Shown: positions 1-11,768 of the stretch, one piece after another
Layout: each line of letters begins with the position of its first letter
How positions within the stretch are numbered: position 1 is the stretch's first letter
Source of the DNA: an uncultured Anaerolineales bacterium
GTDB taxonomy: Bacteria > Chloroflexota > Anaerolineae > B4-G1
Direction: 5' to 3'
Assembly (NCBI GenBank): GCA_964551295.1
Contig: CAZKDJ010000002.1
Span: 1,096-65,095 of the forward strand
DNA: 64,000 nt
Notes under the pieces: generated by a model
The model's input: only the letters and a program-made list of their open reading frames with translations
What the model was told of the DNA's origin: nothing
The model's database searches: none
Position numbers and translations under genes: made by a program

Positions 1-1000
1 AGTGGATTTTGAACACCGTCAGATCATACGTAGGTCTCTCGACCACGACCTCCAATCGGGGCGGCTTCTCGCCTTTGCGCCCCTGGGGACGTTTCTTGGC
101 TCCAAAGATGGTTTTCAGCCTTTTGACGTCCAACCGGCTGCGGGTGCGATCAACGATGCCCTGTAAAATCTCCTCCATTACACTCCCACGTGTGAACACC
201 AGATTGCGACTGTACTCCGCCTGATAGATCGAGTAGTCGTAGTGGAAGCCCGTTCTTTCCTGATCCTCCAAGCTCAACCCAAAGCACAGGCACGCCGAGT
301 AAATCCAACGCTCGCACATCTGGATCAATCGCCCTATCGTCTCCGGAGAGTACAAGGTATCTGCGATTTCGGCCAACTGCGCAGCGTCGGGAACTTCTGT
401 GAAGCAGTTGCCTTCCTTTGTGAACTCAACACCTTCCTTCTTTGCCTGGCGGGCAACGAACTCGTGGCCATTCACCGCGATCTGGGCACTAAACGGAGGG
501 TGCCCACACAGCTTGATCATGACGTGCCCCCATTCAGGGTCCATGATGTGGAACGAGTAGTGGTTCACGTAGGGATATGGTTTCTTCCTTCTGATGTCCA
601 GAGTCTTGCCGTTCTTGGAACGTTCGACCTCCCAAACCGGCGCCGGCGCTCGGCCCACCAGGATCAGAAACACTCCAGCAAAGTCAGGGTCTTCTGGCAA
701 GTACCGCTCGGCTATCTCGTGCTTCCGCTGCCCTTGCTTGCAGTGGATAATGGGAATGCCGTGCTTCTTCGCGTGAGCGTGAACACGCCGGCTGAATCGC
801 CCTGCCATGCGCATCAGGTGAGTCTTGTCCAGATTCTCGTCAGAGCCTTCCAGCCGCCGCTACCATGTGCGGAACCCTCCCGGAGAGCAACCAAGCCGGA
901 AGTAGCCATTGAGCACGATCCGATCTGCACAGTCATAGGTGCCGTCCAGATAATCCGAGTAATACTCGCTGAATTCGTCCGTCGTATTTATCACTCCCAT
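1..1000 (-). pseudogene. IS-associated / transposase-like ORF, 5' part; runs off the left window edge and is interrupted by an in-frame TAG at 860-862
   Basis: My own reverse-strand translation from ATG 1000-998 gives MGVINTTDEFSEYYSDYLDGTYDCADRIVLNGYFRLGCSPGGFRTW*RRLEGSDENLDKTHLMRMAGRFSRRVHAHAKKHGIPIIHCKQGQRKHEIAERYL...HYSFHIMDPEWGHVMIKLCGHPPFSAQIAVNGHEF.... The stop sits where W-W is expected (TGG TAG). The frame stays open to position 1. It abuts and truncates an RHS-repeat remnant. I could not assign a family by eye. Confidence 0.45.
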
Positions 1001-1124
1001 CGCCCCCTCTGGTCGGATGATGGGAGCTTAGGAGAAATCGTGTTTCTTGTCAACTGCCCCGAAGGGGCCCTGTCTTCCGGGCGCAGTCCCGGACGACGCG
1101 TAGTCCCTTTTACTCCCCACGGGT

Positions 1125-1458
1125 TGCCATCTGGATGATATGCATAGTCGCGCAGCTCGAGCAGGTCGCTGACCACACTCGCGGCCTGAATGGATTGCAA
1201 TGCGAACGGGGGCTCTGCGCTGACCTCGCCGGCGGTGTAATATTGGATCGTGGTGCTGATCACCCCCGCCCCCAGCGCCAGCGACGTCGGCTGCCCCAGC
1301 GCGTCGTACCCCGCGTCCTGCAAGTAGACCGCCGCGCCCTCGTCGGCGGTGAGGCCATTGACCCGCCCGGCCCTGTCGTAGGTATAGGTCACCACCTCGC
1401 CGTCGGGGTAGGTCAGGGTCTCCGGGCGGTTCAGCGGATCGTAGGTGAAGGCGGTTTT
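1125..1458 (-). pseudogene. RHS / YD-repeat protein remnant, truncated at both ends
   Basis: Minus-strand ORF 991..1509 contains consecutive YD-type repeats (FTYDPLNRPETLTYPDGEVVTYTYDRAGRVNGL...LQDAGYDALGQP...LRDYAYHPDGN). It has no plausible N-terminus, and the repeat signal is lost next to the transposase-like gene. Confidence 0.55.
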
Positions 1459-1644
1459 GGAGCAAAAGCCCAGACAACAAGTGACCGGCACCCGTAAGGT
1501 ACCGGTCACTTCCGGGACGTGAATCCCAGGTGAGATGTGTGGAACGATGGGCTAGCAGCTACTGGAGCCGATTACACAATGACAAGAAAAACGAGACGGT
1601 GTTGCTGTACCCTAGCCCAATCCTTCAACCGCCGCTAAACTCCC

Positions 1645-1926
1645 CTACGAACTGTGAACCGTCTCGAGGCCCCGGTTGCTCAAGCTCAGGGCAAAGAAAT
1701 CCGGCTGCCAGAAGGCGGACAGGGGTGACTCTTTCAGCAGGTAGAACAGGCTGGCAAAGTAGATGGTCTTGCCGTGCCCGCGCAGGCCGACGGCGCTGAC
1801 GACCAGAGGCGGGTACTCTTTGTAGCCCCGCACGTACATGGGGGGCACCTGCTCGTTACATTCGGGGCAGAAATAGCCTTTCTCCAGGATGAACTGGACG
1901 TCGTCAAGGCAGTATGGACACAGCAT
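1645..1926 (-). CDS. Short ORF with an N-terminal zinc ribbon plus Walker-A P-loop; probably a 3'-truncated NTPase
   Basis: Sequence MLCPYCLDDVQFILEKGYFCPECNEQ (CxxC...CxxC) is followed by VVSAVGLRGHGKTIYFASL (GxxGxGKT). A good SD (GGAGGT) precedes ATG 1926. The ORF stops only about 40 aa after the P-loop, too short for a complete NTPase. Confidence 0.45.
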   Translation of the reverse strand: MLCPYCLDDVQFILEKGYFCPECNEQVPPMYVRGYKEYPPLVVSAVGLRGHGKTIYFASLFYLLKESPLSAFWQPDFFALSLSNRGLETVHSS

Positions 1927-2087
1927 GAGCTACCTCCGTAGCGCCTCTTCCGGCCGCTGCTCCCTGGGCTTGAGAGGGGGTTCCACGCCGCAGGATCGAG
2001 GTGATGGAAGGGAGCAGTCCCTCCCACAGACCTGGCAGGGATTGTAACACAGTTCGACATGGGGGGCAAACGGGCGCCAAATGCCAG

Positions 2088-2116
2088 TTGCAACACCATA
2101 TCGGAAGTGATATAAT
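2088..2116 (+). promoter_or_regulatory. Sigma70-type promoter for the mazEF-like pair: TTGCAA-17-TATAAT
   Basis: TTGCAA at 2088-2093, a 17-nt spacer, TATAAT at 2111-2116. AAGGAGG SD and ATG 2146 lie downstream. Confidence 0.55.
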
Positions 2117-2145
2117 CAAGCTGAGGCTTTTGAAGGAGGCGCAAA

Positions 2146-2424
2146 ATGAGTAGTGTACCAGAGGTCGTCGAAAAGCGCATCCGGTTGTCGGCAGAATGCG
2201 CGGACCGTCTTGATCGCCTAGCCCAGACTCATCGTCTGCGCGAAGATCAGGTCATCGAGAAGGCTCTGGACATTCTCTTCAGTTTGACCGATCTGCTGGA
2301 CGAGGACGCCGAACGGCGAGGATGGTCGTTCCTCTCTGAATCCGCCTTGCAGTGCGTGTGGGATAACGAAAAAGACGCCGTCTACGATAACTGGAGGGAA
2401 TTGTATGCCGTTCCAGCGCAGTAG
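2146..2424 (+). CDS. Type II antitoxin, RHH/MazE-like
   Basis: 92-aa ORF with an N-terminal RHH-like segment (KRIRLSAECADRLDRLAQTH). It overlaps the downstream PemK/MazF-like toxin by 20 nt and has a strong SD. Confidence 0.65.
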   Translation: MSSVPEVVEKRIRLSAECADRLDRLAQTHRLREDQVIEKALDILFSLTDLLDEDAERRGWSFLSESALQCVWDNEKDAVYDNWRELYAVPAQ

Positions 2425-2752
2425 CGTGGTCCTGGTTCCCTTCCCGTTCAGCGATCTCAGCACAACCAAGGTGAGACCGGCAGTCGTCGTGAGTAGCGCT
2501 CTGTATCACACAACCGAGCCCGACCTTCTCCTGGCTGCGCTCACTTCCAAGGTTGCAGCGGCCACAGGCCCTCTGGACTATGTATTAGGCGACTGGCAGT
2601 CGGCCGGGTTGCGCTATCTCTCGGCGCTCAAGCCCGTTTTGTTCACGCTCGACCCCGCCCGTGTGCTTCACTGCATTGGCACGTTGACACCGGCGGATAT
2701 GGCGCAAATAGACCTACGGCTGCTTCGTGCCCTGGGTTTGAAAACGCCCTAA
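2405..2752 (+). CDS. mazF: Type II toxin, PemK/MazF-family mRNA interferase
   Basis: N-terminus SSVVLVPFPFSDLSTTKVRPAVVVS plus ...LAALTSKV... matches the canonical PemK/MazF pattern (VxFPFSDxSxxKxRPAlVlS). Confidence 0.85.
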   Translation: MPFQRSSVVLVPFPFSDLSTTKVRPAVVVSSALYHTTEPDLLLAALTSKVAAATGPLDYVLGDWQSAGLRYLSALKPVLFTLDPARVLHCIGTLTPADMAQIDLRLLRALGLKTP

Positions 2753-2795
2753 AGCCGCAAAAGATGGGTTAGCGGCTTCCGAGGCCGGTTGCGAG

Positions 2796-3464
2796 GTGGC
2801 AAGGGAAACAAGGCGCACGCACAAGCCCTGGCTCTACCCTCCGGCCCGCCTCTACCCATTCTACGGCATCAAACAGGTGCTCAACATCAATCCCGGCACG
2901 GTGCTGCTGGGCCACTTTTTGCACAAGATCGTCGTCGATAACGAGTTCAAGATCAGCGTCTATATGGGCAACGACAATGCCTACGCCGCGCTGTGGACGC
3001 TGATCGGGGCCAAGCTCTTCTCCCGCGAGGATGGCACCAGTCCCCTCATCGGCTTCAATTGGTCCAACTCGGTGAATAACGAGACCATGGAGATCACAGC
3101 CCAGTTTCGCCGCCGGTTGGGCTTTGAGGACGTCGTGCGCTTCGAGCATCACATCACCGAGACGTACAAATCCATCGTGCGCCAGCCCTATGATCGGTTG
3201 GACGAATTGGTCGAGATCGCGGATCACGTGGCCAACATCTCGGCCAAGCACGAGGGCGCGCCCCCGGCGAACGAGACGAGACGCGAGCACCCGTCTGACA
3301 TCCTCGACTATTTCCGCGACAAGGACGAGGTGGAGGACGCGGGCGATATGCCGTTCCTGCTGCGCAACTATCTTGATAAGCACGACGCGGTGAATCGCAC
3401 CGCGCGGGCGCTGACGGAGAATGGGCTGGCGTTCGTGGCGGCACAGGAGTTGCACCGAGCGTGA
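2796..3464 (+). CDS. Hypothetical protein, no family recognised
   Basis: 222-aa ORF (GTG start) with protein-like composition. The overlapping minus-strand ORF 2769..3575 has typical antisense R/L/V/G/H-rich composition. The start codon is uncertain. Confidence 0.5.
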   Translation: MARETRRTHKPWLYPPARLYPFYGIKQVLNINPGTVLLGHFLHKIVVDNEFKISVYMGNDNAYAALWTLIGAKLFSREDGTSPLIGFNWSNSVNNETMEITAQFRRRLGFEDVVRFEHHITETYKSIVRQPYDRLDELVEIADHVANISAKHEGAPPANETRREHPSDILDYFRDKDEVEDAGDMPFLLRNYLDKHDAVNRTARALTENGLAFVAAQELHRA

Positions 3465-3561
3465 TGCGTGAAACGTAAATGCAGTTGGGTGGCCCGACGA
3501 TCTAGTCCCAGAGTACAATCCCAATCTCATTCTCAAGGCCAATGAGAGATTTGGCAAAGTG

Positions 3562-3570
3562 TGGTATACT
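3562..3570 (+). promoter_or_regulatory. Possible extended -10 element (TGGTATACT) upstream of the vWA gene
   Basis: TGnTATACT at 3562-3570. No convincing -35. About 105 nt upstream of ATG 3676. Confidence 0.3.
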
Positions 3571-3587
3571 CTCACTATCTGAAACTT

Positions 3588-3645
3588 TAGCCGTGGTTTC
3601 TGTCCGCGCTTGCACGGCCCGCGCGATTTGGAAATCGCGGCTACA
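3588..3645. repeat. REP/REPIN-like inverted doublet (TAGCCGTGGTTTC ... GAAATCGCGGCTA) with central palindrome CGCGATTTGGAAATCGCG
   Basis: Palindrome at 3622-3639. The 33-nt block 3613-3645 recurs at 4418-4450 with 4 differences (3 substitutions plus a 1-nt indel). Confidence 0.55.
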
Positions 3646-3675
3646 CATCATTATCATCATCACAAGGAGGATGTA

Positions 3676-4380
3676 ATGGAAAGCAGACTTGAAGACGTAG
3701 TCGAGTTCGAGGATAATCCCGAACCCCGTTGTCCCGTGGTGTTGCTCCTCGATACCTCGGGGTCGATGACGGGGCAGCCCGTCGCTGAGTTGAACCAGGC
3801 GCTGTTAGAGTTCGATGAGGCGATGAAGGCGGATGCGCTGGCCGCGCTGCGCGTCGAGGTGTCCATCGTCACCTTTGGCGGGCGCGTGGAGGTGGCCGAC
3901 GTCGCGGGGACCGGCACGTCGCTGGATGCCAGCGATGCCTTTATCACCGCCGATGGCTTTCAGCCGCCCACGCTGACGGCGAATGGCGATACGCCGATGG
4001 GTGAGGCGGTACGCAAAGCGCTGACGCTGATCCGGGAGCGCAAGGAAATCTACAAGCGGAACGGCCTCGACTACTTTCGCCCGTGGATCTTTCTCATCAC
4101 CGATGGGGAGCCGACCGATTTCGGCTGGGAGTCGGCCGCCGACCAGGTCAAGCAGGAGGAGGCGCGCAAGGGGGTGCTGTTCTACGCCGTGGGCGTTGAG
4201 GGTGCCGACATCCAGAACCTATCGCGCTTCTCCGACCAGCGCCAGCCGCTCAAGCTGAAGGGGCTGGCGTTCCGCGAGCTGTTCCAGTGGCTCTCCAGCA
4301 GCCTGTCGGCGGTGGCCAAGTCGCGCCCCGGCGACCAGGTGCCGCTGCCGGCCGTCGGCTGGGCCTCGATAGACACCTAG
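3676..4380 (+). CDS. vWA-domain protein, TerY-like; first gene of the TerY-P-type triad
   Basis: MIDAS motif in VVLLLDTSGSMTGQPV, then ...VSIVTFGG...TPMGEA...IFLITDGEPTD. AAGGAGGA SD precedes ATG 3676. The ORF-track start at 3610 lies inside the REP element. Confidence 0.85.
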   Translation: MESRLEDVVEFEDNPEPRCPVVLLLDTSGSMTGQPVAELNQALLEFDEAMKADALAALRVEVSIVTFGGRVEVADVAGTGTSLDASDAFITADGFQPPTLTANGDTPMGEAVRKALTLIRERKEIYKRNGLDYFRPWIFLITDGEPTDFGWESAADQVKQEEARKGVLFYAVGVEGADIQNLSRFSDQRQPLKLKGLAFRELFQWLSSSLSAVAKSRPGDQVPLPAVGWASIDT

Positions 4381-4393
4381 CGCGCCAGATAGA

Positions 4394-4450
4394 GTAGCCG
4401 CGACTTTGGCCGTGCTTCACGGCGCGCGCGATTGCGAAATCGCGGCTACA
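4394..4450. repeat. REP/REPIN-like inverted doublet (GTAGCCGCGA ... TCGCGGCTAC) with central palindrome CGCGATTGCGAAATCGCG
   Basis: 10-bp outer inverted repeat at 4394-4403 / 4440-4449. Palindrome at 4427-4444. Second copy of the 3588-3645 element, same orientation, again just upstream of a gene start. Confidence 0.55.
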
Positions 4451-4466
4451 AGGCGGGGTAAGGCAG

Positions 4467-5240
4467 ATGAACGACAAGTGGCGCGTATTTGGAGCGTCGG
4501 TGCGGGGGACGTCCCACCAGGCAAACGACGTGCCCTGCCAGGACGCTCACGCATATCGGGTGTTCCCCCGGGGCGAGCTGGTCGTCGCCGTGGCCGATGG
4601 CGCCGGGTCGAGCGAGCGCTCGGACGAGGGAGCACAAGTGGCCGTGCGAGAGGCTGTGGCCTCGTTGGCCTCGGTGATCGAGGGTCGCTTTGACTGGAGC
4701 CAGTCATCGTGGCAAGAGGCGATGCAGGAGGCGTTCCGCCAGGCGCGTGCGGCACTCGATGAGCTGGCCGCGCGCGAGGAGGTGGATCTGCGCGCCTTTG
4801 CCGCGACGCTGACGTGCGCAGTCGCCACCGACGACCGGTTGGTCGTGGGCCAGATCGGCGACTGTGTCGCCATCGCCGCCGACACGTTCGGTGATCTGTC
4901 CACTGTGGTCCAACCCCAGAAGGGCGAGTACGCCAGCGAGACCTATTTCCTCACCGGGCCCGACGCGCTGGACACTGTCGAGGTTGAGATCGTCTCCCGC
5001 CAGGTCAAGTCGCTGGCCGTGATCAGCGACGGACTGACGCGGCTGGCGGTCAAGCTGCCCGATTACGCGCCTGCCGCCCGGTTCTTTGATCCCCTGTGGG
5101 CCTTTGCCGTCGAGGCGGAGGATGAGGCGCAGGCCAAAGCGGAGATGGCCGCCTTCCTGGCCTCCGAGCGGGTGTGCGCCCGCAGCGACGACGACAAGAC
5201 CCTCGTGCTGGCTGTCCGGCCGAAAGGGCCCTTTGCGTAA
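4467..5240 (+). CDS. PP2C-family Ser/Thr phosphatase; second gene of the triad
   Basis: FGASVRGTSHQANDVPCQDAHAY...VAVADGAGSSERSDEGAQVA...VGQIGDC...VISDGL is the typical PP2C_2-type pattern. Confidence 0.85.
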   Translation: MNDKWRVFGASVRGTSHQANDVPCQDAHAYRVFPRGELVVAVADGAGSSERSDEGAQVAVREAVASLASVIEGRFDWSQSSWQEAMQEAFRQARAALDELAAREEVDLRAFAATLTCAVATDDRLVVGQIGDCVAIAADTFGDLSTVVQPQKGEYASETYFLTGPDALDTVEVEIVSRQVKSLAVISDGLTRLAVKLPDYAPAARFFDPLWAFAVEAEDEAQAKAEMAAFLASERVCARSDDDKTLVLAVRPKGPFA

Positions 5241-5252
5241 AAGAGATCATCG

Positions 5253-8165
5253 ATGATCGTCGTCTATGACTCCGCAAAGCGCCGCATCCTCCTCGGCAGG
5301 GAGGTAGGCCACGGGGGTGAGGCTGCCATCTACCGTGTGCAGGGGCAGGAGACCCTCCTGGCCAAGGTCTATATGCCTCCCATCCACCCGCACTATGCGC
5401 CCAAGGTGGCGTGGATGAGGGACCATCCCCCCGAGGAGCCGGATTACTCTGTAGATATCGACGAGCACAAGGCGCTGGCCTGGCCCATCGAGCTGCTCTA
5501 CGATCGCAAGGGCAGGTTTACCGGCTATCTGATGCCCCGCATCCGGGGGGGCGTGACCCTTTTAAAGGTCTTTAACCCGCGCCTGCGGGCCCAGTCCCTG
5601 CCCTTCGACCACAAGTACCTGCACCGCACGGCGCGCAACCTGGCGGCGGCGGTGGCCTCGCTGCACGCCAAGGGGTACGTGGTAGGGGATCTGCACGAGA
5701 GCAACGCGATCGTGACGCCGCAGGCGTTGGTGACGATGATCGACACCGACTCGTTCCAGGTGCGGGCGAAGGTACGGGGCGAGGAGGTGTGCTACCGCTG
5801 CGTGGTGGGCAAGCCGGAGTACACGGCGCCGGAGCTGCAGGGCAAGCACCTGGCGGACGTGACGCGCGGGCCGGAGCAGGACAACTTTGCTTTGGCGGTG
5901 CTGATCTTCCAGTTGTTGATGTGGGGGAACCACCCGTTCCGCTCGCTGTGGAAGCGGGCGGGGGAACCGCCGCCGCTGGAGGTCAAGATCGCGCGCGGGC
6001 TGTTCCCGCACGTCAAGCCGCCGCCGGACCCGGTGGAGCTGCCGCCCAACGTCCCTTCTCTGGGCACGCTGCATCCCGGGCTTTCGGCCCTGATGCAGCG
6101 CTGCTTCGTGGACGGACACAATGATCCGCACCTGCGCCCCACGGCGGCGGAGTGGCGGGGCGGGCTGGAGGAGGCGGAGGCGGCGCTGATGCAGTGCGCC
6201 AAGGGGCACTACCACTCGAACCTCCTGGTCAAGTGTCCCCAGTGCGAGGCGGATAAACGCACGGCCAAGCGGGCCAAGCATATTGCCGCGGCTCGACGCC
6301 GGCGGGCTGCCGCTGCGCGTCAGCAGCGGAGAATAACCTTTTCGTCTTGGCTTCAGCATGGGCAACGGCAGACGGCGAGGCCTGCACAGCCGAGGGTGGC
6401 CCGGACGCGGGTTCGTCCTACGACCCGCGCTCCGGTGCTGAAGCAGGCCTTGCGACCGAGGTTGGTCGTAATGGGGTTCTTATTGCTGGCTGTGATATGC
6501 TTGATATACTCCTTTGCGAATATCTCGCCACCTGAACGTTCGAGGCCGGCGATGGGGGTGCCGACTGCGACGCTAAGGCCAACTCCAACCCTGTCTCCTC
6601 CACTGTCGGGCGCATCTTTGTCGCAATCTATGGTTGCTATATCGCCTGAAAATTGCGAACAAGTTACACAGCTAGATAATTGGGCCTATACTTCTGATGT
6701 GTTAAATGTAGTGTTCTCTCCAGATGGGACTTTGTTGGCCTTAAGGGGACGGGACGGAGAGGTGAGGATACAGGAAGTAGCAAGCGGGCGTGGAGTGCGC
6801 ACTTTTTCTGGGAGTACGATTGACGGCGATATAGCCTTCTCGTCTGATGGGGTGTTTTTGGCTTTTAAAGGTTCTAATGATACAGTGGAAGTATGGGAGG
6901 TCTCAACTCAACGCAGGGTTTATAGCCTGAAGGGTATTGGCAAAGTGACGAGTTTAGCCTTTTCCCCCAATGGAACGTTGCTAGCTGTGGGAGGAGAGTA
7001 TAGGAGTAACGCTGGAGTAGACTTATGGGATGTTGCCACCGGGGATAAGGTGTATACGTTGTCTGGTGATAGTGACAGCGTTAATAGCGTTGCTTTTTCT
7101 CCTGATGGGTCGCTGTTAGCCGGGTCAGGTGGCGGTGTAGTGGAATTGTGGAGGGTAACAAGCGGCGATTACTTTAATCGCCGTGTCCGTATCTTTTTTC
7201 ATGAGGATGTGAAGGGGATGGCTTTTTCTCCGGATGGAGCGCTGTTGATGACATGGGCGAGGGATGGCAAGGTAAGAATGTGGCGAGTGCTGGGTGAGGG
7301 TGAGGAGTTCACGCTGGTCCATGATTTCCCTGTGTATGCTGTCGCTTTCTCTCCTACTGGAGCGTTACTGGTCACGGCATCGCAGGACAGGGTGCTAAGT
7401 CTGTGGGAAGTGTCAACCAAGTCAAGGATACATGCATTTTCTGGGGATTCTAAAGTGTATAGCTTGGCCTTTTCTCCTGATGGGACGCTGCTGGCTTCGG
7501 GGCACTCGGGCGGAACGGTAACTTTGTGGGGAATCCCCCCTGGGGCAATGTCTCCCCTGCCCGACACAACCCTGGGCGCGATCAGCGGTGTCGTCACCTA
7601 TTTTGGCACCGGCCTGCCTGTAATCGGGGCCAGCGTCACCACGGACCCGCCTACTGCCTCGATCACGACCGACGCCGAGGGCGAGTTCTCGATCCCCAAC
7701 GTGCCGCCTGGGAGTTACACCGTTACAGTCACAAAGTCCGGCTATGCGATCGATAGCATGCGCGTCAGCGTCCAGGCAGATGGGATGGTGGATGACGTCA
7801 TCTTGCTGGTCTTCCCGCAGCCGTTGGTGACGCTCACGTCACCCCCGATGTTTCCGGGCGCCACATCTGACGCCACATCGGGCGTGATCAGTGGCGTTGT
7901 CTTCGACATGAAGACCGAACTGCCTATGTTGGGGGTCAACGTCACCACCGATCTGCCCACCAGTTCGGTCATGACCGACGCCGAGGGCAGGTTCACGATC
8001 CCCGCCGTGCCACCTGGCTCCTACCTGGTCGAGGCTGCGAAGCACGGCTTGACCATCGGCAAGGAGGCGGCCGTTGTGGCGTGCAAACAGACGGTGGTCG
8101 ATTTTGGAATGTTGGATGTTTCGGGGCTATCGGTGACGTCGATGCCGGCTCCTGGAGTGCCGTGA
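5253..8165 (+). CDS. Ser/Thr protein kinase (TerY-P type) fused to a Zn-ribbon, basic linker, TM helix, 7 WD40 repeats and 2 CarboxypepD_reg-like domains
   Basis: Kinase motifs GGEAAIYRV, LLAKVY, VVGDLHESN, MIDTDSF and KPEYTAPEL. C-x2-H...CPQC ribbon. KRTAKRAKHIAAARRRRAAAARQQRR linker. TM helix LVVMGFLLLAVICLIYSFANI. Seven FSPDG...LW blades. Two copies of ISGVV...TTD..G.F.IP.VPPGSY.V. Confidence 0.85.
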   Translation: MIVVYDSAKRRILLGREVGHGGEAAIYRVQGQETLLAKVYMPPIHPHYAPKVAWMRDHPPEEPDYSVDIDEHKALAWPIELLYDRKGRFTGYLMPRIRGGVTLLKVFNPRLRAQSLPFDHKYLHRTARNLAAAVASLHAKGYVVGDLHESNAIVTPQALVTMIDTDSFQVRAKVRGEEVCYRCVVGKPEYTAPELQGKHLADVTRGPEQDNFALAVLIFQLLMWGNHPFRSLWKRAGEPPPLEVKIARGLFPHVKPPPDPVELPPNVPSLGTLHPGLSALMQRCFVDGHNDPHLRPTAAEWRGGLEEAEAALMQCAKGHYHSNLLVKCPQCEADKRTAKRAKHIAAARRRRAAAARQQRRITFSSWLQHGQRQTARPAQPRVARTRVRPTTRAPVLKQALRPRLVVMGFLLLAVICLIYSFANISPPERSRPAMGVPTATLRPTPTLSPPLSGASLSQSMVAISPENCEQVTQLDNWAYTSDVLNVVFSPDGTLLALRGRDGEVRIQEVASGRGVRTFSGSTIDGDIAFSSDGVFLAFKGSNDTVEVWEVSTQRRVYSLKGIGKVTSLAFSPNGTLLAVGGEYRSNAGVDLWDVATGDKVYTLSGDSDSVNSVAFSPDGSLLAGSGGGVVELWRVTSGDYFNRRVRIFFHEDVKGMAFSPDGALLMTWARDGKVRMWRVLGEGEEFTLVHDFPVYAVAFSPTGALLVTASQDRVLSLWEVSTKSRIHAFSGDSKVYSLAFSPDGTLLASGHSGGTVTLWGIPPGAMSPLPDTTLGAISGVVTYFGTGLPVIGASVTTDPPTASITTDAEGEFSIPNVPPGSYTVTVTKSGYAIDSMRVSVQADGMVDDVILLVFPQPLVTLTSPPMFPGATSDATSGVISGVVFDMKTELPMLGVNVTTDLPTSSVMTDAEGRFTIPAVPPGSYLVEAAKHGLTIGKEAAVVACKQTVVDFGMLDVSGLSVTSMPAPGVP

Positions 8166-8885
8166 GCGCTGGCGAATGAGTCCGCCAGCTAAAACGCCTG
8201 GGGCTAAAGCCCCCAGGCCCAGGAATGGAAGGACGCTTTAGCGTCCTCGATTCCTTTCAAAATGAGGAGATGGTTTGTTTTAGCAAGTTTGGTAGCACGC
8301 TTCAGCGTGCTTTGGTTTTCAGCCCGAGGATTTATCCTCGGGCAAATGGAGGTAGATGCAATGCCTTATTGGCGGCTGCACTATCATCTTGTGTGGGCCA
8401 CCAAGAATCGCATGCCCCTCATCACACCTGACCTCGAGTCAGGGCTGCACGGCTACCTGATCGGCAAAGCCGACGAGCTTGGAGCTATCGTGCACGAGGT
8501 GGAGAGCGTTGAAGATCACATTCATCTGGTTGCCTCCGTGCCACCCAAGGTCAGCATCTCCGATTTTGTCGGCCAGCTCAAGGGGGCCAGCGCCCATCAC
8601 GTCAACCACTTGCCTGGTGCTCTTGGAAGCTTTGGCTGGCAGCGTGGCTACGGGGTCGTATTGGTTAGTCCGTCGGGCCTTGACAAGGCAATCGAATACG
8701 TCCGCGATCAAAGGACGCATCATAGGGAGAACACGGCTGTCAGAGCATTGGAGTGTATTGAGGTTGAATCGTTGCCCAGGGCTGGCGAATGAATCCGCCA
8801 GCTAAAAGCTCAACCCTGCTAAAGCAGGCTGGGCAGCACGCTTTAGCGTGCTTTAGCTCTCAGCCTGAGGATTTATCCTCGGGCC
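8166..8885 (+). mobile_element. IS200/IS605-family element (~0.72 kb) or RAYT locus: Y1 transposase flanked by directly repeated hairpin blocks
   Basis: A 27-nt block at 8168-8194 repeats at 8781-8807 (1 mismatch). A 50-nt two-hairpin block at 8294-8343 repeats at 8835-8884 (5 mismatches). tnpA lies between them. The overall size is typical of IS200. Confidence 0.6.
8361..8792 (+). CDS. tnpA: IS200/IS605-family Y1 (HUH) transposase TnpA / REP-associated tyrosine transposase-like
   Basis: MPYWRLHYHLVWATKNRMPLI..., HUH motif in EDHIHLVASVPPKVSISDFVGQLKGASAH, W-x-x-GY, and the C-terminal Tyr helix AIEYVRDQ. GGAGG SD precedes ATG 8361. Confidence 0.8.
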   Translation: MPYWRLHYHLVWATKNRMPLITPDLESGLHGYLIGKADELGAIVHEVESVEDHIHLVASVPPKVSISDFVGQLKGASAHHVNHLPGALGSFGWQRGYGVVLVSPSGLDKAIEYVRDQRTHHRENTAVRALECIEVESLPRAGE

Positions 8886-8901
8886 GGCTAGGAGGTGCAC
8901 A

Positions 8902-10776
8902 ATGATCCCCAAACGTATGAGCGAATTCCTGCACGACGCGCTCCCCGAGCGCACCTGGCGCAACCGGCTGCGCCGGGAGGATGGGCTGGCCTTTATCGAG
9001 TTCGGCCCGCTCGATGTGGACCGCTTGCAGCGGCTGGGCATCACCGCCGACCGGCTGGGGCCGCGGTTGGTGGTCTGCATGTGGGACGAGGAGGCGGCAC
9101 TCGAGACCGGCGGCTATCTCGTCGTCGATAACCTGGCCATGGGACGCCCGTCGATGGGCGGCATCCGCATGCTGCCCGACGTGACGCCTCTGGCGATCCA
9201 CAACCTGGCCCGCGGCATGACGCTCAAGAATGCCGCGGCGGACCTGCCCTACGGCGGCGGCAAGGCGGGCATCGTCGCGCCGGAGCGCGATCTCACTCCA
9301 GAGGAGCACACCGAGATCGTGCGCCGCTTTGCCCACCTGATCTACCGCTACCGCGACATCTACCTCCCCGGCCCGGACGTGGGCACCAACGACGCCGACA
9401 TGAAGACGGTGGCCATCGAGAATGGCCTCGATTGCGCGCTCTCCAAGCCGGCCGACATGGGGGGCAACCGCATCGACCTGTTGGGCGCCGCCGGTGGCAG
9501 CGTGGTCATCGCCATCGACGCCTTGCTGGATGAGGTCGAACGTCTGCGCGCCCTGCCGCAGTTCGCCAATCTGCAGGTCCCCTCCCGCGCCGAGATGACC
9601 GTCTTGATCCAGGGCTTTGGCGCGGTGGGCGCAAATGCCGCCAAAATTCTGCAGGCGCGCGATCCCGCCACACGCATCGTCGGCATCAGCGACGCCACGG
9701 GCTATCTCTACGACGAGGTCGGGCTGCCCGTCTCGGAGCTGTTCGACGCGCGGGACGCGCACGGCGTGGTGACCTTTCCCTATTTTCTCGAGCATCTTAT
9801 CGACGTGCGCTCGCCTGATCCCCAGTGTAAGTTCTCCAACGCGCCCAACGACCTGCTGCGCGAGTCGGCCTTTTGCTTCGTGCCGGCCGCGCCGGTGGCC
9901 AATTACCTGGACGTGGACGCGGGCTCCAATCCCTCAATGACGGTGGATCGTATGGGGCGCTGGGGGATGATCGTCGAGGGGGCCAACACCTACTCGCCCG
10001 ACCCGGCCCGCAAGGCCGCCCGCGCCCGGATGGAGCGCGCCGTCTACTGGCAGGCGGGGGTACTCATCGCCACCGACTATCTGGTCAACTCTGGCGGTGT
10101 GATCTATGCCGCGCAGGAGCGCATGATCAAGACGCCCGATCACCTGCGCATCCCTGACGAGATGCTGGGCGACGGGGAGGCGGTGGAGCAGTGGCTGGTC
10201 GACCACCAGGCCGACCTGGAGGCGCTGGCCGAACAGCGGCAGGTCGCCGGGGAGGCCAAGCGGGACGAGGTGATTCGGCGCAATATGAAGGAGTTGGTGG
10301 ATCGCCTGGTGGCCGATCCCGACATGCTGCCCTGCGAGGCCGCCGAGCAGATCAGCGTCAGCCGCATCGCCTCCAGCGAGCGCTACCGCACCGTGGCCGA
10401 CGTCATGTCGCCCATTCCTACCATCGCCGATGACCTTACCGTGCGCGACGCGGCGCAGATGCTGGTCGACGAGGGATGCGACCTGCTGGTCGTCGTCTCG
10501 GCGGGCGGCGAGTTGGTGGGCGTCGTCACCGACTGGGACGTCACCCGCGCCTCGGCCATAGCCTGCGCCGAGGACTTGGGACTGGCCGAGATCATGACCC
10601 GCCAGGTGGTCACCGCCCGCCCCGACGAACCCGTCCTCGATGTGGTGCGCCGGTTGGAGCATCACGAGATATCCGCTATGCCGGTGGTGGATGATGGCGG
10701 CGTGCGCGGTATCATCAGCGGCGATCTGCTGGCCCGGCGGACGCTCTACCGGCTGTTGCAGGCGGAGGGGGATTGA
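8902..10776 (+). CDS. Glu/Leu/Phe/Val-family amino-acid dehydrogenase fused to a C-terminal CBS pair
   Basis: GGYLVVDNLAMGRPSMGGIRM...MTLKNAAADLPYGGGKAGIV (catalytic Lys box). Rossmann motif IQGFGAVGANAA. The C-terminus has two CBS-like units (VADVMSP...LLVVVSAGGELVGVVTDWDV and LAEIMTRQVV...AMPVVDDGGVRGIISGDLL). AGGAGG SD. Confidence 0.88.
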   Translation: MIPKRMSEFLHDALPERTWRNRLRREDGLAFIEFGPLDVDRLQRLGITADRLGPRLVVCMWDEEAALETGGYLVVDNLAMGRPSMGGIRMLPDVTPLAIHNLARGMTLKNAAADLPYGGGKAGIVAPERDLTPEEHTEIVRRFAHLIYRYRDIYLPGPDVGTNDADMKTVAIENGLDCALSKPADMGGNRIDLLGAAGGSVVIAIDALLDEVERLRALPQFANLQVPSRAEMTVLIQGFGAVGANAAKILQARDPATRIVGISDATGYLYDEVGLPVSELFDARDAHGVVTFPYFLEHLIDVRSPDPQCKFSNAPNDLLRESAFCFVPAAPVANYLDVDAGSNPSMTVDRMGRWGMIVEGANTYSPDPARKAARARMERAVYWQAGVLIATDYLVNSGGVIYAAQERMIKTPDHLRIPDEMLGDGEAVEQWLVDHQADLEALAEQRQVAGEAKRDEVIRRNMKELVDRLVADPDMLPCEAAEQISVSRIASSERYRTVADVMSPIPTIADDLTVRDAAQMLVDEGCDLLVVVSAGGELVGVVTDWDVTRASAIACAEDLGLAEIMTRQVVTARPDEPVLDVVRRLEHHEISAMPVVDDGGVRGIISGDLLARRTLYRLLQAEGD

Positions 10777-11301: not shown

Positions 11302-11529
11302 ATGAGACAGTTCAAAATTATCGTTGAAAAACACCCGGATGGGTACGTCGCTTACCCACTTGGGCTGAAAGGCGTCGTCGTTGGGGAAGGGGACACCTAC
11401 GAAGAGGCTCTTGCCGACGTCGGGTCAGCGATCCAGTTCCACGTTGAAACCTTCGGCCCCGAGGTCATCCTTGATATGGAAGACTCCGTGATCGAAGCGT
11501 TCGTAGCAGAAGCTGGAGTACCTGTCTAG
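11302..11529 (+). CDS. hicB: HicB-family antitoxin (UPF0150-like)
   Basis: MRQFKIIVEKHPDGYVAYPLGLKGVVVGEGDTYEEALADVGSAIQFHVE is the typical HicB N-domain pattern. Its stop overlaps the hicA start. Confidence 0.8.
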   Translation: MRQFKIIVEKHPDGYVAYPLGLKGVVVGEGDTYEEALADVGSAIQFHVETFGPEVILDMEDSVIEAFVAEAGVPV

Positions 11530-11768
11530 TGCCAAAATTCCCCGTTGACGCGCCTCGCGCCAAGGTGATCAAAGCGTTTGAGCGACTGGGATTCCGAACA
11601 GTGCGAGAAGGAACGCACATCGCTATGGCACGGGAAAATCCTGATGGAACACTGACACCGCTCACAATGCCCAACCATCGGCGCATCAAAGCCTCTACCC
11701 TGCGAACCATTTGCACCCAGGCAGGGATTCCACGCCAGGACTTTTTGGAAGCTTACCAGGAAGCATAG
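11529..11768 (+). CDS. hicA: HicA-family mRNA-interferase toxin
   Basis: KVIKAFERLGFRTVREGTHIAMAR...MPNHRRIKASTLRTICTQAGIPRQDF is the typical HicA/YcfA pattern. GTG start shares one base with the hicB TAG. Confidence 0.8.
   Translation: MPKFPVDAPRAKVIKAFERLGFRTVREGTHIAMARENPDGTLTPLTMPNHRRIKASTLRTICTQAGIPRQDFLEAYQEA

Follow-up and report, generated by a model that had tools for sequence, protein, structure and literature searches.

A three-gene cassette encoding a vWA protein, a PP2C-type phosphatase, and an atypical Ser/Thr protein kinase (STK) lies at positions 3676-8165 of a 64,000-nucleotide stretch of DNA, here called the window, from an uncultured Anaerolineales bacterium of the Chloroflexota (assembly GCA_964551295.1, contig CAZKDJ010000002.1, positions 1,096 to 65,095 of the forward strand). 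By homology, this triad belongs to the YegL/PphC/YegI family, which is TerY-P-like in the sense of comparative genomics. It is probably an accessory receptor kinase of the YegL/PphC/YegI type whose sensor is a hypervariable WD40 domain outside the cytoplasm. The fusion of a kinase to WD40 repeats is itself already known, and STK-WD40 proteins have been listed since 2007 (PMC2176072). The new observations at this locus are a presence/absence indel of about 5.4 kb, a hypervariable WD40 domain carried on a conserved kinase, and a trough in the GC content of third codon positions (GC3) across the kinase gene.

Gene Layout and Homology of the Triad

The three open reading frames (ORFs) share the plus strand (Table 1); the PP2C gene begins 87 nt past the vWA stop codon, and the kinase gene begins 12 nt past that of PP2C. 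A preliminary description of this DNA had proposed the order vWA (DTSGSM), PP2C, and atypical kinase (GDLHESN, DTDSF, TAPE), and both the ORFs and the motifs agree with it. It had also related the genes to Escherichia coli yegL/yegK/yegI, a relation now upheld by the homology of all three proteins and by their identical gene order. The vWA protein is 51% identical to YegL of E. coli K-12 (E 1e-68), the phosphatase is 34% identical to PphC/YegK (E 5e-39), and the kinase is 30% identical to YegI over 348 aa that include its zinc ribbon (E 8e-39). The phosphatase retains a VADGAGS motif, which holds the aspartate that is mutated in PphC-D46N.

Neither the vWA protein nor the phosphatase contains a hydrophobic segment (maximum Kyte-Doolittle value of the vWA protein 1.13), and the vWA protein is cytoplasmic. 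Promoter-like sites are present upstream of the vWA gene at 3542-3570 and 3628-3657. The genome, a 4.5-Mb metagenome-assembled genome (MAG) in 368 contigs that is 85% complete, carries a single copy of the triad. An NCBIfam search of the triad proteins returned no informative family.

Table 1. Features of the triad and its immediate flanks, in window coordinates; aa numbers refer to the kinase. AF2, AlphaFold2; IS, insertion sequence; MIDAS, metal ion-dependent adhesion site; pLDDT, predicted local distance difference test; REP, repetitive extragenic palindromic.
Feature	Coordinates	Strand	Evidence and remarks
Intergenic/promoter region upstream of vWA; left edge of the accessory segment	3465..3675	+	Congener homology ends at ~3442-3479
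REP-like element, 33 nt, copy 1	3613..3645	+	Repeat family D7; just 5' of the vWA start codon
vWA protein, YegL/TerY-like partner	3676..4380	+	ATG at 3676; MIDAS DTSGSM; Pfam VWA 49 bits
REP-like element, 33 nt, copy 2, in the vWA-PP2C spacer	4418..4450	+	91% identical to the copy at 3613-3645
PP2C-type Ser/Thr phosphatase, PphC/YegK-like	4467..5240	+	Pfam PP2C_2 169 bits
Kinase gene, 970 aa, intact frame	5253..8165	+	GDLHESN, DTDSF, TAPE motifs
Atypical Hanks-type kinase domain, aa 1-306	5253..6170	+	Pkinase 32.4 bits; homology to YegI; AF2
Zinc ribbon, aa 311-333	6183..6251	+	Ligands C315, H319, C328, C331
Arg/Lys-rich juxtamembrane linker, aa 334-401	6252..6455	+	AF2: helix 329-361, then disorder
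Single transmembrane helix, aa 402-421	6456..6515	+	Hydropathy; AF2 helix 402-421
Pro/Ser/Thr-rich stalk, aa 422-464, predicted extracytoplasmic	6516..6644	+	Disordered in AF2
Seven-bladed WD40 propeller, aa 465-762	6645..7538	+	Pfam WD40 135 bits; hypervariable, low GC3
CarboxypepD_reg-like beta-sandwich 1 (CPD1), aa 775-856	7575..7820	+	PF13620/PF13715 at 777-846; pLDDT ~80
CarboxypepD_reg-like beta-sandwich 2 (CPD2), ~aa 875-950	7875..8102	+	Second Pfam stretch; modelled ~896-950, pLDDT 60-70
IS200-type (Y1 transposase) element with flanking hairpin repeats	8166..8885	+	Y1_Tnp 84.7 bits; repeat families D4, D5, D8

Domain Architecture and Predicted Folds of the Kinase

The kinase runs from its catalytic domain through a zinc ribbon, a basic linker, and one transmembrane (TM) helix into a seven-bladed WD40 propeller and two CarboxypepD_reg domains. 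This architecture had been read from the translation at the outset, and Pfam, AlphaFold2 (AF2), and hydropathy together confirm it. The full-length AF2 model has a predicted local distance difference test (pLDDT) score of 79.7, with the kinase domain and ribbon above 90.

The Pfam Pkinase model narrowly recognizes the catalytic domain (32.4 bits against a cut-off of 31.7, aa 111-231). The catalytic loop reads VGDLHESN, and D164-T165-D166-S167 replaces the DFG motif; the two elements align with VGDVNQNS and D-S-D-S of YegI. Across 14 to 57 aligned homologues, G21/G22 of the glycine loop, K38, D146, N151, D164, D166, S167, and E194 of the TAPE motif are invariant or nearly so. Missing catalytic residues had been set beforehand as grounds for giving up the kinase assignment, and in the alignment K38, D146, N151, and D164 are all present and invariant. 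The AF2 model of aa 1-346 has a pLDDT of 95.4 and a predicted template modelling score of 0.93, and its top fold match in the PDB by Foldseek is the kinase domain of Mycobacterium tuberculosis PknB (E 2.8e-12). The zinc-ribbon ligands C315/H319/C328/C331 are invariant in 57 homologues, and the ribbon aligns with the C-x-H...CPWC pattern of YegI, with a beta-hairpin at 312-322 in the AF2 model.

The propeller is modelled with 28 strands at a pLDDT of ~90, and seven FSPDG-type motifs mark its blades. Its top PDB match is 5yzv, the WD40 domain of Thermomonospora curvata PkwA (TM-score 0.91, 36% identity). Pfam finds CarboxypepD_reg at 90 bits in two stretches, and the DNA of this region contains a 149-nt repeat (7563-7711 against 7869-8017, 72%).

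Membrane Topology

The only strongly hydrophobic segment of the kinase lies at aa 404-422, where the Kyte-Doolittle 19-mer mean reaches 2.72; no other stretch of the protein exceeds 1.46. The 66 residues N-terminal to this segment contain 20 Lys and Arg residues and no Asp or Glu, and the 48 residues C-terminal to the helix (aa 423-470) contain 3 Lys and Arg residues and 21 Pro, Ser, or Thr residues. A hydrophobic segment is found between the ribbon and the propeller in 21 of 22 WD40-type relatives from named-genome loci in several phyla. Because the kinase domain must be cytoplasmic, an N-in/C-out orientation is the simplest reading, as in PknB or PrkC. Hydropathy, charge bias, AF2, and analogy thus predict that the kinase is most likely a single-pass protein with approximately 550 residues outside. 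The more than 500 extra residues had been presumed extracytoplasmic from the start, and one TM helix with a strong positive-inside bias agrees with that predicted placement.

The CarboxypepD_reg domain matches S-layer and SusC-type surface proteins. Among the 39 best matches to the WD40 domain in other proteins, 22 have a hydrophobic N-terminus resembling a signal peptide or anchor, which suggests that exported WD40 propellers may be common.

PknB and PrkC consist of a cytoplasmic N-terminal Hanks kinase, one TM helix, and an external sensor, and PknD carries an extracellular NHL beta-propeller ectodomain. With these receptor kinases of Gram-positive bacteria, PknB, PrkC (PASTA), and PknD, the kinase described here shares the Hanks kinase fold and a PP2C partner, and by its predicted topology it would also share the single TM helix and the C-terminal extracellular sensor. 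Unlike these receptors, it belongs to the divergent YegI family, contains a zinc ribbon, has an obligatory vWA partner, and carries a true WD40 propeller that is hypervariable.

Relation to YegL/PphC/YegI and TerY-P

YegI is an active Ser/Thr kinase with a VGDxxQxS catalytic loop and DSD in place of DFG (bioRxiv 10.1101/819920, 10.1101/303594). It autophosphorylates serines in and beside the DSD loop and is dephosphorylated by PphC (bioRxiv 10.1101/819920, 10.1101/303594; PMC13232886). YegI and the kinase in the window have in common the VGDxx[E/Q]x[N/S] loop, D-[S/T]-D-S for DFG, a C-terminal zinc ribbon, and membrane association. They differ in that the catalytic-loop Asn is retained here and lost in YegI. 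Furthermore, YegI is a two-pass protein with no extracytoplasmic domain, whereas the present kinase has a single predicted TM helix, beyond which ~550 residues make up the WD40 propeller and the CarboxypepD_reg pair.

In the CoCoNuT paper (PMC10542128), which summarizes Anantharaman, Iyer and Aravind 2012 and is the source of the definition used here, TerY-P combines a TerY-like vWA protein and a PP2C with an STK that carries a zinc ribbon at its C-terminus. The locus had been called a TerY-P triad, and in this comparative-genomics sense it is one, with the vWA protein, the adjacent PP2C, the kinase-zinc ribbon, and the conserved three-gene neighborhood all found. It shares with the TerY-P triads of the literature a single operon of vWA, PP2C, and STK-zinc ribbon and a patchy, accessory distribution. 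Unlike those systems, it has an external sensor on the kinase and no link to ter or CoCoNuT/McrBC-type genes in this neighborhood.

TerY-P is also the name of an anti-phage system reported to protect against T7-like phages (PMC7699616; Gao et al. 2020), and its stand-alone version is described as containing an OB fold instead of the zinc ribbon (PMC10542128). Membership of this system, with which the preliminary description had linked the triad, does not follow from the present data. The PADLOC TerY-P kinase and phosphatase models match nothing in the triad at E <= 0.01, and the TerY model reaches 20.8 bits over a partial stretch of the vWA protein; E. coli YegLKI, used as a control, is likewise unmatched. 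Pfam and AF2 place a zinc ribbon, TM helix, WD40, and CPD after the kinase domain and find no OB fold there. Since PADLOC does not recognize the triad and the validated version reportedly carries an OB fold, anti-phage membership is not established. Papers linking TerY with WD40, or YegI with phage, were sought, and only unrelated ones came up.

A third group of relatives comprises PkwA-type and cyanobacterial STK-WD40(7) proteins, which share with this kinase a Ser/Thr kinase followed by a seven-bladed WD40 propeller. STK-WD40(7), STK-DUF323, and STK-TPR architectures were catalogued in cyanobacteria in 2007 (PMC2176072), and STK-WD40(7) and STK-DUF323 again in 2017 (PMC5587647). These surveys make no mention of a vWA/PP2C triad, a zinc ribbon, a TM helix before the propeller, or hypervariable alleles.

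Distribution of the Cassette

The triad is accessory in its own lineage. None of 40 relatives (3 congeners, 21 further members of the family, and 16 of the order) encodes the kinase at E <= 1e-30, and only 12 of 401 genomes of the phylum do so (~3%). Two of the same-genus genomes (G001 and G003) have an empty site, in which an ORF matching 2796-3464 is followed after ~30-80 bp by the GDH-CBS gene that starts at 8902 in the window. These empty sites show that the segment from ~3465 to 8850 is a presence/absence polymorphism, and the triad together with the IS200-type element behind it forms an indel of about 5.4 kb. Three metagenomic loci (L099, L002, and L100) carry the triad at the same place.

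The ORF at 2796-3464 encodes 222 aa, has no Pfam match, and is 81-88% identical at the DNA level in the triad-less congeners. Because it is kept there, it is a resident gene outside the cassette.

The IS200-type element contains a Y1 transposase ORF at 8262-8792 between directly repeated hairpin blocks (8165-8343 and 8778-8884). L100 has the element in the same place, with an 85% identical transposase (L100 4656-5126), and L099 and L002 lack it and have only REP-like hairpins there. The element is a secondary insertion that separates the kinase gene from GDH-CBS, and it is possibly a REP-associated tyrosine transposase (RAYT/REP) system.

A Hypervariable WD40 Domain with Low GC3

Amino-acid identity between the window and its syntenic relatives L099, L002, and L100 differs widely from segment to segment. 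GDH-CBS is 92-95% identical, PMT 86% (L099 only), vWA 94-98% (L099 and L002), PP2C 86-88%, and the kinase domain 85-86%. The linker and TM region drops to 37-68% (L099 and L002) and the WD40 domain to 34-50%, which is the floor for pairs of unrelated WD40 propellers, and the CPD domains recover to 62-74%. At the DNA level, similarity is lost at 6306, 6327, or 6814 on the left and at 7331, 7515, or 7607 on the right, varying by pair. In other clades of the family the WD40 domain also diverges more quickly than the kinase, although to a much smaller degree, with kinase and WD40 identities of 96 versus 86-90% and 89 versus 62%, compared with 92 versus 39% here. In the lineage of the window, the WD40 domain thus changes much more rapidly than the remainder of the operon.

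Base composition changes along the same gene. GC3 is 0.89 in the kinase domain, 0.62 in the linker and TM region, 0.49 in the WD40 domain, and 0.79 in the CPD domains, compared with 0.81-0.88 in the neighboring genes, and GC skew and AT skew also shift abruptly. The GC3 trough is present in four of five alleles and weaker in the fifth, L101.

A single metagenome yielded the alleles P0004, P0006, and P0007. The window allele is confirmed by Logan contigs from four salt-marsh runs; because such contigs drop variants, they do not resolve WD40 polymorphism within a sample. A search of metagenome contigs for further close alleles found only relatives at <=55% identity.

A donor for the WD40 cassette was sought within the genome, where the three other WD40 loci (C70, C85, and C148) are all <=39% identical, and among 5.8 billion proteins, where nothing exceeds ~50% identity. 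Homogenization of WD40 repeats was rejected as the cause of the variability, as the blades are just 27% identical to one another. A diversity-generating retroelement was set aside because the Pfam-scanned neighboring ORFs include no reverse transcriptase, although no dedicated search for one was made.

C-Terminal Tails in the YegI-Like Kinase Family

The preliminary description had treated the WD40 fusion as unusual and had named its being common and already described as grounds for refutation; a survey of kinase tails shows that this is largely the case, such fusions being far from rare. At E <= 1e-3, a search with the kinase core yielded 9,496 cluster representatives, and at E <= 1e-30 it yielded 3,292; nearly all of the best 150 have lengths of 450-1,480 aa. 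In 231 of 258 homologues, the kinase is followed by one or more hydrophobic segments. Precomputed Pfam annotations of the closest 120 reveal FGE-sulfatase (which we take to be DUF323), WD40, TPR, LRR, and PPIase tails. When every second one of the best 150 was sampled, 14 of 68 cluster representatives carried WD40. C-terminal tails are thus the rule in the YegI-like kinase family.

WD40-type kinases at 22 named-genome loci are distributed across Chloroflexota, Cyanobacteria, Acidobacteriota, Armatimonadota, and Poribacteria, and the fusions include those of Chloroflexaceae, Roseofilum, Pseudanabaena, Prochloron, Zarconia, Gloeobacteraceae, Acidobacteriota/Blastocatellia, Chthonomonadaceae, and Poribacteria. 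Only the pair of CarboxypepD_reg domains is confined, among the proteins and loci examined, to the immediate clade of the window.

Of 72 named-genome loci whose upstream DNA is long enough, 59 have the order vWA, PP2C, kinase, with the upstream pair adjacent and on the same strand, and metagenomic loci show it as well. Only 9 of 19 WD40-type loci keep this order. At six loci with cyanobacterial, Chthonomonadaceae, and some acidobacterial WD40-type kinases (L019, L049, L065, L067, L073, and L079), the kinase gene is not directly preceded by those for vWA and PP2C, which lie elsewhere, on the opposite strand, or were not found within the locus DNA examined. As the pair does not adjoin the kinase, the triad linkage appears looser in those lineages.

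Individual homologues illustrate the range of tails. P0008, P0011, P0024, P0039, P0123, and P0238 combine the kinase core with LRR, TPR, FGE-sulfatase (SUMF1/EgtB-like), cyclophilin-type PPIase, and double zinc ribbon tails. P0238 contains a canonical Pkinase domain N-terminal to the YegI-like kinase and a long WD40 array.

Proposed Function and Alternative Readings

The YegL/PphC/YegI (TerY-P-like) module is widespread, given its thousands of representatives at E <= 1e-30, although no physiological role has been assigned to it even in E. coli. Its kinase core, in Chloroflexota and several other phyla, is routinely joined to large, probably external C-terminal parts beyond a hydrophobic segment. 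For the triad in the window, a receptor-like kinase, as first proposed, is still the reading that we favor, with its topology inferred from hydropathy, charge bias, and analogy. In such a receptor, the cytoplasmic kinase domains would be kept apart until the external propeller and CPD module bound a ligand. The propeller may bind an external or envelope ligand, and clustering driven by that ligand could lead to autophosphorylation in the D-T-D-S loop, comparable to the D-S-D-S loop of YegI. The active kinase would then phosphorylate its MIDAS vWA partner, a purely conjectural substrate, or other cytoplasmic targets. PP2C would reset the switch by dephosphorylating the kinase, as PphC does YegI.

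Gain and loss as a unit, rarity, and sensor turnover speak less for a housekeeping signal than for a variable and probably non-self ligand, which could be a phage, a competitor, or a surface polymer that varies. Fast sensor turnover is the pattern expected for a receptor that faces a variable external target. If the ligand were a phage or competitor structure, the triad would represent an extracellular-sensing branch of bacterial immunity. A bolder proposal, which we consider speculative and rather unlikely, is that the kinase is a bacterial counterpart of the surface pattern-recognition receptor kinases. Here, an exported, hypervariable WD40 domain that is exchanged or diversified among co-existing strains would recognize a phage or competitor structure and trigger a vWA/PP2C-gated phospho-switch before or at attack. 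Were this so, the YegI-like family with its WD40, FGE-sulfatase, LRR, TPR, and PPIase tails would constitute a large unrecognized receptor repertoire and would offer a route to the function of E. coli YegL/PphC/YegI.

Several points weigh against the accessory receptor kinase. Homologous triads elsewhere are found among housekeeping-type genes (rhomboid, M28 peptidase, LysM, MFS, and sugar metabolism), and a PADLOC scan of the three proteins gives no defense-system match. E. coli YegI keeps both termini inside the cell. The hypervariability is that of five alleles only and, as no donor was found, rapid in-situ divergence, cassette exchange by repeated import out of a lower-GC pool, and relaxed constraint are indistinguishable as its origin. 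The other WD40 genes of this genome (C70, C85, and C148) have a GC3 of 0.50-0.74 compared with a typical ~0.8-0.88, so the trough may partly reflect how WD40 genes in this genome are composed in general. Lastly, no physiological role is established for E. coli YegL/PphC/YegI (bioRxiv 10.1101/819920, 10.1101/303594; PMC13232886).

The main rival is a housekeeping-type envelope sensor, which on balance is unlikely. The WD40/CPD ectodomain would then keep watch on the wall, S-layer, or surface glycan of the cell itself. Its variability would follow differences in surface chemistry between strains, and the role of the triad would be to adjust envelope physiology and not to act in conflict. PknB and PrkC, which monitor muropeptides, have the same receptor-STK topology, and PknB is the top match of the kinase fold. 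The housekeeping-type neighbors of homologous triads, the PMT-type glycosyltransferase genes just downstream in the window, and the CarboxypepD_reg domains typical of surface proteins also fit a sensor of the cell's own envelope. However, the cassette is absent from congeners with the same flanks, including GDH-CBS and PMT, and only ~3% of the phylum's genomes carry the kinase. For a sensor of a self ligand, 34-50% identity in the WD40 domain is likewise extreme when the kinase reaches 85-92%.

Less likely still, and in our estimate quite improbable, is the validated cytoplasmic TerY-P anti-phage system, in which the WD40 domain would sense a phage protein intracellularly and the hydrophobic segment would merely tether the kinase to the membrane. 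The same three-domain logic, the reported protection against T7-like phages (PMC7699616), the patchy, accessory distribution with toxin-antitoxin (TA) and IS elements nearby, and the frequent use of WD40 sensors in NACHT/NB-ARC proteins are consistent with intracellular defense. The weak or absent PADLOC matches and the OB fold reported to replace the zinc ribbon in the validated version (PMC10542128) stand against it, and the TM helix with 20 versus 3 Lys and Arg residues across it, the Pro/Ser/Thr-rich stalk, and the surface-type CPD domains argue for export.

The abrupt shifts in GC3, GC skew, and AT skew and the fragmentary, incomplete source MAG would suit a low-GC3 WD40 region that is a chimeric assembly join or a functionless, degenerating insert, but this can be given almost no credence, since the 970-codon frame is intact, the propeller is modelled with high confidence, an identical 5.9-kb unitig spanning 2987-8919 exists in a public run (possibly the source sample itself), and four further alleles from other samples share the architecture, with the trough clear in three of them.

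Neighboring Genes and Repeats

The surroundings of the triad had been likened to a defense island. The neighbors named in support of this, MazF, the IS200-type element, and HicA, are indeed present; a single island is not supported, given the separate indels and the settings of distant triads. The TA and IS neighbors are thus separate insertions in a variable region. The window sequence left of 2861 holds MazEF and an RHS fragment and is matched in none of the relatives examined, and window 1-2860 is a second variable segment beside the triad. MazF is encoded at 2405-2752 with a putative ribbon-helix-helix partner, and the RHS-repeat fragment lies at 991-1509 on the minus strand.

On the other side, a HicA toxin gene (11529-11768) and a small upstream partner ORF (together 11302-11768) lie between the GDH-CBS and PMT genes. 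HicAB is an insertion relative to L099, where the GDH-CBS and PMT genes adjoin directly.

The 33-nt REP-like element is present both before the vWA gene and in the vWA-PP2C spacer. Many contigs from metagenomes accumulate and break off at positions 3645 and 4450, with a wide variety of continuations, so the element resembles a genome-wide REP- or MITE-like (miniature inverted-repeat transposable element) sequence and not an operon-specific signal.

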